From NCBI GenBank assembly GCA_900768465.1, contig CAAGCY010000013.1, positions 187,587 through 251,586 of the forward strand: DNA of 64,000 nucleotides, read 5' to 3'. The stretch is from Alphaproteobacteria bacterium (GTDB taxonomy: Bacteria > Pseudomonadota > Alphaproteobacteria > CAAGCB01 > CAG-977). The position numbers and the translations under genes are program-made. The first letter of the stretch is position 1, and each line of letters starts with the position of its first letter. Shown here in pieces: positions 23,381 through 24,410 of this stretch. Under the pieces are notes generated by a model. The model was not told the DNA's origin. It worked only from the letters and a program-made list of their open reading frames with translations, and searched no databases.

Positions 23381-23740
23381 ATGTCTACTCAAGAAGAATT
23401 GGAAGCGGAACGTTTTATTCACCGCGGCATGCAGTATTTGAAAACGACTTTCCCCGAACAAACGGCGGAAATGGATGACGAAGTGCTGAAAAACAAGCTG
23501 ATTGACGGTTGTCAGCTGGCTTTGTCGCACGGTTTTGAAACCGAAGCGGACGTTATGCTTCTGGTTGATTTTCTGTGGCGTTTGCCCGACGGGGCGGCGG
23601 AAAGTTCCGACTATGAATGGATGGATGAAATCTTGTCATCGGACGATATGGACAACGAAATGAAAATTGATGCGCTGTACAACGCTTTTGCGATTACAAC
23701 CGCGGTCAAAGAGGATGAGGCAAATGGAAAAGAATTGTAA
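23381..23740 (+). CDS. acidic hypothetical protein (119 aa), upstream partner of a thiol-enzyme gene
   Basis: Very D/E-rich with no signal peptide. Its 3' end overlaps the start of the next gene by 17 nt, suggesting translational coupling. Confidence 0.45.
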   Translation: MSTQEELEAERFIHRGMQYLKTTFPEQTAEMDDEVLKNKLIDGCQLALSHGFETEADVMLLVDFLWRLPDGAAESSDYEWMDEILSSDDMDNEMKIDALYNAFAITTAVKEDEANGKEL

Positions 23741-24410
23741 GGCGACGATTTATTCCGAATCTCCCGATATGATGATTCCGCGGCGGCTGAAGCACGCGAT
23801 TATGCCCCGCAATCCCGAAGAATTGGGAACGGCGGTCGGGCATGTTTTTTTCGGCATTACGGACAAAAACGGCGTTGAAAAGGTGTACGGTCTGCACGCC
23901 GTTTGCGCGATGGTCGGCAACGAAAACGTCGAGGAAAAAGACCGCATGGGGTCGATTTTCTCCTCTAAAAAAGTGGCGGGCGCGGTCGTTGACGATTCCA
24001 AAGAACCGTATGACGACAAGCTGGTCTATCACATCACGGAATCGCAATACAAAAAAATCGAATCGTTTGCGGAAGCCGCGAAAGCCAATCCGCCGAAATA
24101 CAACATCCTGTCCAACAACTGTGTGTGCTTTACCTACAAAGCGTTGAAACAGGCGGATTTGAAACTGCCGCCTCAGCTGCCCGTTTATTCGCCCGCGATG
24201 ACGTGCTTGGGCATCCGCGTTTTGGATAAAGCGCAGAAAATCAAACAGACTTTGGGAAAAGCGGCGGCTGCCGTGTTGAAGCGTTTTTCGTCGACGCGCA
24301 AGCTGTCGTCCAAAATTCTGGACGACATCCGCCGCAAACCGTCCATGGAAGGACACGGCGTTTCTTCGGTTGTTCAACTGCTGAAAGCGTTTAAAAAGAA
24401 AGCGCGCTGA
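23724..24410 (+). CDS. permuted papain-fold thiol enzyme (PPPDE/DeSI-like or LRAT-like) hypothetical protein
   Basis: His-containing GHVFFGITDKNGVEKVYGLHAV followed by YNILSNNCVCFTYKAL. This resembles the PPPDE His...Y-x-L-x2-NNC-x-HF catalytic arrangement. The C-terminus is basic. Confidence 0.4.
   Translation: MEKNCKATIYSESPDMMIPRRLKHAIMPRNPEELGTAVGHVFFGITDKNGVEKVYGLHAVCAMVGNENVEEKDRMGSIFSSKKVAGAVVDDSKEPYDDKLVYHITESQYKKIESFAEAAKANPPKYNILSNNCVCFTYKALKQADLKLPPQLPVYSPAMTCLGIRVLDKAQKIKQTLGKAAAAVLKRFSSTRKLSSKILDDIRRKPSMEGHGVSSVVQLLKAFKKKAR

Follow-up and report, generated by a model that had tools for sequence, protein, structure and literature searches.

Two overlapping genes in a 64-kb stretch of contig CAAGCY010000013.1, from an Alphaproteobacteria bacterium, are the subject of this work; the window, as used below, means that whole stretch at its full length. 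The pair lies between anmK and gpsA and consists of a small open reading frame (ORF) encoding a very acidic protein of 119 amino acids (aa), directly followed by a longer ORF encoding a basic protein of 228 aa, predicted to be a thiol enzyme with a fold like that of a type VI secretion system (T6SS) effector, TseH (Table 1). We read the pair as a T6SS-type effector/co-chaperone cassette, a reading that we regard as evenly poised between right and wrong, and that is weighed below against other explanations as the evidence that bears on each of them is given.

The order of the two ORFs, with the acidic one first, and their overlap were as a preliminary description of this DNA had them, and it had also named the flanking anmK and gpsA correctly. 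As to the enzyme, the ORF that it had proposed was found but its length of 229 residues was not upheld: the frame is open from position 23667 and offers one ATG at 23715 (231 aa) and another at 23724 (228 aa). The latter (MEKNCK...) is the likely start, since AGAGGA lies 8 nucleotides (nt) upstream of it and the residues that precede it are not conserved in close orthologues, in which the three positions before MEKNCK read TKP, TNP or MKP even though the proteins are otherwise near-identical. Residues are numbered here for the 228-aa form; numbers of the 231-aa form are higher by 3. The overlap and the internal AGAGGA, a likely ribosome-binding site, suggest at the level of sequence that translation of the two genes is coupled. 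In orthologues the same junction, measured at the aligned position, is an overlap of up to 26 nt or a gap of up to 7 nt, and no convincing terminator was found between the small gene and the enzyme. The promoter of the pair presumably lies in the intergenic region shared with the divergent anmK, where a promoter scan returned weak minus-strand matches only. Both ORFs score positive for codon usage, and neither protein contains a signal peptide or a hydrophobic segment of transmembrane (TM) length.

The evidence for an enzyme begins with two motifs, GHVFFGITDKNGVEKVYGLHAV and YNILSNNCVCFTYKAL, both of which are present as originally described, with a His-to-Cys spacing of 93 residues. The family to which the protein belongs comprises 24 clusters at 90% identity, all from metagenomes or metagenome-assembled genomes (MAGs) and none of them named, and all 24 share an invariant set of residues (231-aa numbering): His43, His61, Asp100, Gln111, Asn135-Cys136 and Pro-Pro-Gln152-154. 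From the family alignment, AlphaFold2 gave a confident model (predicted local distance difference test, pLDDT, 87.4; predicted template modelling score, pTM, 0.84) in which His43 opens a β-strand (43-49), His61 belongs to the strand after it, and a helix (136-145) has Cys136 at its N-terminus. The structural neighbours of this model are all permuted NlpC/P60 proteins: TseH came first, as it also did with Foldseek (E 2.4e-4), and in the structural comparison it was followed by YiiX (8.1), PPPDE2/DeSI (7.1), the Bacillus cereus cysteine peptidase 3kw0 (6.8), Aichivirus 2A (6.7) and PLAAT4 (6.6), with the MARTX RID domain at rank 8 (5.8). Together, the model, the invariant His and Cys and these neighbours leave us in little doubt that the predicted fold is of the permuted papain-like (NlpC/P60) type with a His/Cys catalytic centre, as had been anticipated from the motifs. 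By analogy, His58 (His61 in the longer form) is likely to be the third residue of a catalytic triad, since its spacing from the first His (+17/18) is the same as in TseH (Glu81-His64-Cys172) and in the lipoprotein N-acyltransferase Lnb (Asn66-His49-Cys148) (PMC11573676). Beyond the catalytic domain, nearly all of the enzyme's net charge (+15) sits in a basic C-terminal tail (+13.5), which the model folds into helices 160-188, 196-206 and 216-230 and a short strand at 211-214 (block pLDDT 70-94 over 151-230).

In Pfam, the enzyme matches PPPDE/Peptidase_C97 (PF05903) only, and below the cut-off (E 0.0099; 16.2 bits where 29.2 are required); the match spans residues 102-147 and profile positions 74-121 of 151, and the best score of any paralogue is 22.2 bits. 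Across the 24 family members, weak matches fall to Peptidase_C97 (17 members), Lnb_N/DUF4105 (10), RTE1 (6) and LRAT (PF04970; 2, best E 0.12), and because they are spread over several families we take the signal to be one of superfamily rather than family level. NCBIfam and PADLOC hold no match for either protein, and the enzyme profile has none among PDB sequences at E<=10. DUF6695, the family of TseH, is absent among the Pfam matches listed for the enzyme (E<=10) and for its 24 relatives (E<=1), as well as among the 25 of 42 families listed for the 90 distant relatives described below. These results bear on the assignment to PPPDE made in the preliminary description, according to which the enzyme would be a DeSI-type isopeptidase that strips ubiquitin-like modifiers, or other peptide ones, from their targets. 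The weak PF05903 match does cover the Cys region, the permuted papain fold is shared, and the pattern Y-N-I-L-x2-N-C-x2-F resembles the Cys box of PPPDE proteins; yet the score lies below the gathering threshold, TseH and YiiX are structurally closer, and no E1, E2 or ubiquitin-like gene was found nearby, so that we consider an isopeptidase highly improbable. LRAT, to which the motifs had been compared more loosely, is not supported either, with its two weak matches. A bacterial PPPDE-like motif of this kind is, in our view, better read against the lipid-directed branch of TseH, Tox-Act1 and Lnb than against the eukaryotic desumoylases.

More distant kin link the enzyme to toxins. A profile search of 1.84 billion representative proteins retrieved 290 relatives at E<=1e-3, of which 90 were aligned and scanned for domains. 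In these 90, the Cys is the sole invariant column and Gly-His is kept in at least 90%; an eCIS_core (DUF4157) cargo domain is attached to 13 of them, and RHS repeats or PAAR to others, the enzyme-like part being a C-terminal toxin domain on such proteins, in keeping with the earlier suggestion that bacterial members tend to be effectors or toxins. Two fused relatives were inspected, one of which lies in a polymorphic-toxin locus (with Imm26 nearby) and the other in a locus of the extracellular contractile injection system (eCIS) type. The stand-alone alphaproteobacterial proteins have the basic tail, which the toxin domains fused to RHS or eCIS parts lack.

The permuted NlpC/P60 clades comprise YiiX, LRAT, TseH (DUF6695), Tox-Act1 and DUF4105/Lnb; the permuted branch has been argued to act on fatty-acyl groups, and the T6SS effector Tox-Act1, whose catalytic residues are His43 and Cys151, was shown to be active as a phospholipase, as was TseH to a lesser extent (PLoS Biol 2026, PMC12994826). 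Among the Tox-Act1 homologues tabulated in the same study is a stand-alone protein of 238 aa that an Alphaproteobacteria MAG encodes in housekeeping surroundings, and our enzyme family, or one of its paralogues, probably already lies within the Tox-Act1 clade. Neither Tox-Act1 nor the enzyme has a Pfam model of its own, both give weak matches to DUF4105/Lnb_N, and members of Tox-Act1 are fused to RHS or PAAR, as are the distant relatives described above; the catalytic His43/Cys151 of Tox-Act1 has its proposed counterpart in His43/Cys136 of the enzyme (231-aa numbering). Similarly, TseH (VCA0285 of Vibrio cholerae, PDB 6V98) has the same permuted order, with the His before the Cys, a third polar residue ~17-18 positions past the His (Glu in TseH, His in the enzyme) and a stand-alone form of about 200 aa. 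However, it is only 13-14% identical to the enzyme, and the 73-residue tail and the upstream gene for an adaptor-lobe-like protein are features of the enzyme and not of TseH. LRAT/PLAAT proteins and Aichivirus 2A combine the same core with a C-terminal segment that directs them to membranes, and the PLAAT triad follows a His-His-Cys pattern, as does the enzyme, but their anchor is hydrophobic whereas the tail is basic and amphipathic, and their distribution is eukaryotic or viral rather than bacterial. By analogy with TseH, Tox-Act1, Lnb and LRAT/PLAAT, a lipid acyl bond suggests itself as the target, and we put the chance that the substrate is a lipid at somewhat short of even.

The small acidic protein belongs to a family of 37 clusters (56 with the profile), 66-153 aa and mostly 105-126 aa in length, for which no Pfam domain is on record. 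It matches no Pfam family at E<=10, PF13503 (DUF4123) included, and its profile gave spurious low-score matches only among PDB sequences. Its model (pLDDT 91.5) is all-helical, and the best structural match to this model, far above any other structure, is the adaptor Tap3. Tap3 is built of an α/β N-lobe (1-198) and a five-helix C-lobe (199-302) (PMC12909789), the latter being its only all-helical part of ~100 residues. Because the small protein is all-helical, measures 119 aa and aligns to Tap3 over 100 residues, we infer, from size and helicity, that it corresponds to the C-lobe. The N-lobe of DUF4123 adaptors attaches to the spike, VgrG or PAAR, and effectors are bound by the C-lobe, which is variable; the lobes are sometimes encoded by separate genes, as in TecT and co-TecT (PMC11582642). 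The small protein is comparable to co-TecT and to the C-lobe of the Tap adaptors (Tap3, Tap6, Tap14): it lacks the α/β N-lobe, i.e., the spike-binding part, and is predicted to have a helical lobe of the effector-binding type, and its gene lies immediately upstream of its partner, as adaptor genes do. We think it rather probable that it is a chaperone of the adaptor-lobe type, here short (105-125 aa in the family) and very acidic.

The company that the small family keeps in other genomes is consistent with such a role. The module of small gene plus enzyme recurs in three distant lineages (L037, L043 and L067, in our numbering of loci) and is older than the gut clade to which the window belongs: the small protein of L037 shows 34% identity (E 2e-17; enzyme profile E 4.5e-34), that of L043 was found with the hidden Markov model (HMM) of the family (E 6e-17), and that of L067 (HMM E 3e-42) is followed by two enzyme copies. 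Just upstream of the cassette in L037, a 523-aa protein with Zeta_toxin/AAA_33 kinase domains is encoded (5675-7246). In five non-gut lineages a third gene directly follows the enzyme and encodes a ~265-aa protein that starts LxYxGSGP, lacks a signal peptide and has weak matches to PD40/β-propeller, DPPIV_N and DUF5050 models; an immunity function is possible for it, as is that of a third subunit, and it is absent from the gut-clade loci. Remoter members of the small family directly precede proteins unrelated to the enzyme (L046, L048 and L066). Two of these proteins match no Pfam family and, each being followed by another unannotated gene, form candidate new effector/immunity pairs (L046 and L048). 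The third is a Gln_deamidase_2 protein (224 aa) in a soil-metagenome T6SS locus, where its start overlaps the small-family gene by 4 nt, and where a DUF4123 protein of 194 aa consisting of the N-lobe only (E 1.5e-33), a VgrG (E 2e-87) and a 240-aa ORF without Pfam family (5010-5732) are encoded as well. This locus has the appearance of a split TecT/co-TecT-type adaptor and shows the arrangement described in PMC11582642.

These contexts also bear on whether the 119-aa protein might be a stoichiometric inhibitor that neutralizes the enzyme in the producer, in the way of type II antitoxins or of immunity proteins that act in the cytoplasm. The charges of the pair are strongly complementary, the genes overlap with the small one first, as in many type II toxin-antitoxin operons, the two strictly co-occur, and the gut clade offers no other immunity candidate. 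However, immunity proteins track one toxin family, whereas the small family precedes at least four unrelated downstream proteins; and because several unrelated proteins follow it, once in a split-adaptor T6SS locus, we favor an adaptor or co-chaperone over an immunity protein. Moreover, its predicted fold is that of an adaptor lobe rather than any known immunity fold, equally basic paralogues of the enzyme lack such a partner (see below), the usual immunity position downstream is held by the different ~265-aa gene in non-gut lineages, and PADLOC recognizes neither protein. We thus consider an inhibitor improbable, and of the coupled "chaperone or inhibitor" that had been proposed for this locus, the coupled helper stands and the inhibitor has lost ground.

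Returning to the effector/co-chaperone cassette, we picture its operation as follows. Through translational coupling, the acidic co-chaperone and the enzyme would be made side by side, and the former would take hold of the new enzyme in the manner of an adaptor C-lobe with its effector, keeping it soluble and inactive; the charges (-20 in the small protein against +13.5 in the tail) suggest that the basic tail is involved. Cys133, activated by His40 that is in turn oriented by His58, would form an acyl-thioester intermediate, and the enzyme would hydrolyze or transfer a fatty-acyl group (ester- or amide-linked) of a membrane lipid, acting as a phospholipase A or an acyltransferase, while the 73-residue amphipathic tail would carry it to anionic membranes. 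Where a spike and an N-lobe partner are available, the co-chaperone would pass the enzyme on to be exported; in the gut clade, export might rely on a system encoded elsewhere, or the enzyme might be kept for an internal role. The ORFs, their conservation and strict pairing, the predicted folds and the settings of remote homologues are observed; the binding of the two proteins, the lipid substrate, membrane targeting by the tail and export in this organism are the steps that we infer, and export by a T6SS in this organism appears rather doubtful to us.

The history of the locus was traced through 39 orthologous loci in which both genes occur, and in every one of them the enzyme has the small gene directly upstream (all 23 genome or assembly loci with upstream sequence and 16 metagenome loci). 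In sister lineages, queA-mucR-ycgN-ygjP immediately precedes the pair; ygjP is next to it in two lineages, other genes flank it in a third, and anmK stands between ygjP and the pair only in the lineage of the window itself. The pair is thus vertically inherited and it is the neighbours that vary. The "island" of the preliminary description gives way to this view, and we rejected a mobile island as such: no flanking repeats were found around the pair, its G+C content (0.47-0.51 versus 0.55-0.58 in the neighbours) shows a mild dip, and neither a tRNA gene nor an Rfam family at gathering score occurs anywhere in the 64-kb window. One gene split by a frameshift was likewise rejected, as the ORFs are separate at every locus but L058. 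There (4528-6369) a transporter-like upstream frame enters the small gene without a stop, giving 614 codons in one frame, which is probably due to a lost stop codon or an assembly error; the close relative L057 has the stop. No fusion of the small gene with the enzyme was seen at any locus, the His and Cys are conserved in the orthologues, and the profile and fold searches agree; the refutations that had been envisaged for the pair did not materialize.

The variable neighbourhood also speaks to another function that might be considered for the enzyme, namely that of an NlpC/P60-type peptidoglycan amidase or endopeptidase linked to murein recycling through anmK. AnmK is indeed the divergent neighbour, and TseH was originally proposed as a peptidoglycan hydrolase; however, since this adjacency is confined to one lineage and the enzyme lacks a signal peptide, we deem a cell-wall hydrolase very unlikely.

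Several observations weigh against the effector/co-chaperone cassette. The pair sits among housekeeping genes and, at the same depth of divergence, the enzyme and the small protein retain 50-60% identity, compared to 55-61% for YgjP and 67-76% for QueA, MucR and YcgN. Polymorphic toxins usually diversify faster, and because the pair diverges at about the rate of YgjP, its evolution resembles ordinary purifying selection rather than arms-race diversification. The window, and the 5-8 kb around the pair in the enzyme-carrying lineages, yielded no T6SS, VgrG, PAAR, Hcp or DUF4123 N-lobe gene, and phmmer searches with the VgrG, TagH and DUF4123 sequences of L066 had no match in the window. Whereas T6SS effector loci such as that of Tox-Act1 have a downstream immunity gene, the gut clade shows no conserved immunity-like gene after the enzyme; a two-TM immunity protein like the one downstream of Tox-Act1, which acts in the periplasm, is encoded downstream of the enzyme neither in the window nor in L001 and L004. 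No sequence or profile match ties the small protein to the DUF4123 adaptors, the link being one of structure and context. Finally, a helper does not seem to be needed merely to mask a basic tail, because equally basic paralogues of the enzyme exist without a partner, which also weakened a simpler proposal, that the acidic partner just masks the tail.

These paralogues number two to four more per gut genome (L025-L036), with 24-28% identity to the enzyme and lengths of 232-248 aa, and some of them are arranged in tandem. They adjoin enolase or class-I lysS and none is accompanied by the small partner; one (L033) has an unrelated acidic 165-aa ORF upstream instead. In an assembly titled 'Limosilactobacillus gorillae' (L008, L027; CAVCSV010000002.1 and CAVCSV010000009.1), the enzyme (95% amino-acid identity) and one paralogue are encoded as in alphaproteobacterial MAGs; this bin is probably contaminated or mislabelled. 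A literature search found no work on secretion systems in RF32-type gut Alphaproteobacteria.

Conceivably, then, the pair has ceased to serve a secretion system in these gut Alphaproteobacteria, or never did so, and the enzyme is a domesticated housekeeping protein that works within the cell, for instance by transferring acyl groups or deacylating lipids on the membrane's inner face so as to remodel or repair them, with the acidic protein as its regulatory or stabilizing subunit. The position after queA-mucR-ycgN-ygjP, kept in the core genome of two lineages, the YgjP-like divergence, the lack of signal peptides and TM segments in both proteins, the absence of T6SS and immunity genes nearby in seven lineages and the location of paralogues beside lysS or enolase all fit this explanation, as does the fact that the permuted NlpC/P60 members Lnb and LRAT are housekeeping acyltransferases. 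Nevertheless, many of the closest sequence relatives outside the clade are toxin fusions, the fold of the helper and one remote context indicate loading onto a T6SS, the several and partly tandem paralogues per genome resemble an effector repertoire, and non-gut lineages have the extra, immunity-like third gene; on balance, we hold domestication to be fairly unlikely.

What is new here, as compared to the enzymes of the Tox-Act1/TseH type and the helpers of the split-adaptor type, which are known kinds, is the fixation of such a cassette in the core genome, the lack of immunity and spike genes nearby and a helper family without prior description. Going further, we tentatively propose that the 119-aa protein represents an undescribed family of free-standing "adaptor C-lobe" co-chaperones that marks several kinds of cargo, and that the cassette, which a whole clade of gut and rumen Alphaproteobacteria has fixed in its core genome with neither immunity nor spike genes, contains either a weapon-derived lipid enzyme domesticated, with its chaperone, for an internal membrane function or an effector that needs no immunity as it is aimed at host or other eukaryotic membranes; we would sooner doubt this proposal than rely on it. 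If the small protein is a detached adaptor lobe, its family would be a marker for new secreted effectors, and three unannotated candidates lie beside its remote homologues. Two "hypothetical" genes, which all members of a clade of uncultured Alphaproteobacteria from human gut and rumen appear to possess, would gain a biochemical identity, that of a putative thiol acyl-hydrolase or acyltransferase with a His/His/Cys centre and its helper, and a toxin-type enzyme without immunity or spike genes nearby would provide a case for how the toxins of contact weapons turn host-directed or housekeeping.

Table 1. Features of the gene pair, its surroundings and related loci. Positions refer to the window unless a locus is named; residue numbers in brackets are those of the 231-aa form.
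Feature	Locus	Position	Strand	Remarks
Small acidic ORF	window	23381-23740	+	119 aa, pI 4.06, net charge -20, predicted all-alpha, six helices
Enzyme ORF, predicted permuted NlpC/P60 (TseH/Tox-Act1-like) thiol enzyme	window	23724-24410	+	228 aa, pI 9.6, net charge +15
ORF overlap	window	23724-23740	+	17 nt, different frames; enzyme start versus end of small ORF, whose stop is 23738-23740
AGAGGA, likely ribosome-binding site	window	23710-23715	+	within small ORF
CAT codon, proposed catalytic His40 (His43)	window	23841-23843	+	GHVFFG motif, start of β-strand
CAC codon, His58 (His61), candidate third triad member	window	23895-23897	+	18 residues past first His
AAC TGT codons, Asn132-Cys133 (Asn135-Cys136)	window	24117-24122	+	Cys codon 24120-24122, proposed nucleophile; motif YNILSNNCVCF
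Basic helical C-terminal tail, residues 156-228	window	24189-24407	+	73 residues, net charge +13.5, pI 11.2, amphipathic helices
Intergenic region, common to divergent anmK	window	23293-23380		88 nt; AAGGTG at 23370-23375, 5 nt before small-ORF ATG
AnmK	window	22006-23292	-	divergent neighbour
GpsA	window	24421-25410	-	convergent; 10 nt past enzyme end
Enzyme paralogue	L033	6004-6723		
Enzyme paralogue	L025	5992-6699		
Enzyme paralogues	L030	5198-5962 and 5929-6708		
~265-aa LxYxGSGP protein	L037	8877-9692		
~265-aa LxYxGSGP protein	L044	6284-7084		
~265-aa LxYxGSGP protein	L067	2495-3283		
~265-aa LxYxGSGP protein	L068	5590-6399		
~265-aa LxYxGSGP protein	L043			fragment
604-aa protein after small-family member	L046	1511-3325		no Pfam family
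486-aa protein after small-family member	L048	380-1840		no Pfam family; C-terminal HETGHAFG, zinc-peptidase-like (HExxH) motif
Soil-metagenome T6SS locus	L066	1781-6924		TagH (T6SS forkhead-associated, FHA), N-lobe-only DUF4123, small-family homologue, Gln_deamidase_2, 240-aa ORF, VgrG

As for the remainder of the window, tsaD lies on the gpsA side of the pair (minus strand), and genes for a MucR/Ros protein, a CxxCxxCC protein and a YgjP-like protein are found upstream of it. Toward the start of the window (228-12805, plus strand) is an operon-like cluster for a machine resembling a type IVb pilus or type II secretion system (T2SS), which encodes a TcpQ-like protein, a secretin, a PilO-like protein, a 479-aa protein of no family, a T2SSE ATPase and a T2SSF platform protein, and then a 1024-aa protein, the N-terminus of which we read as prepilin-like (...GALMVEAIALLGL; a weak Sarcoglycan match is its sole Pfam match), and a 290-aa protein of no family; no link between this cluster and the pair was found. 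It is followed, on the minus strand (12875-14677), by three tandem paralogues encoding small basic proteins (186, 186 and 221 aa) that share a motif like NVHHK.PL.GGG.NEF.NF, similar to the box of HNH nucleases; of the three, two were scanned and belong to no Pfam family. On the other side of the pair, beside tsaD (26541-27812, plus strand), a 423-aa acidic protein without Pfam match is encoded, with one N-terminal hydrophobic segment and, by eye, a coiled-coil-rich appearance, whose position presumably recalls that of Mic60-like genes in Alphaproteobacteria.

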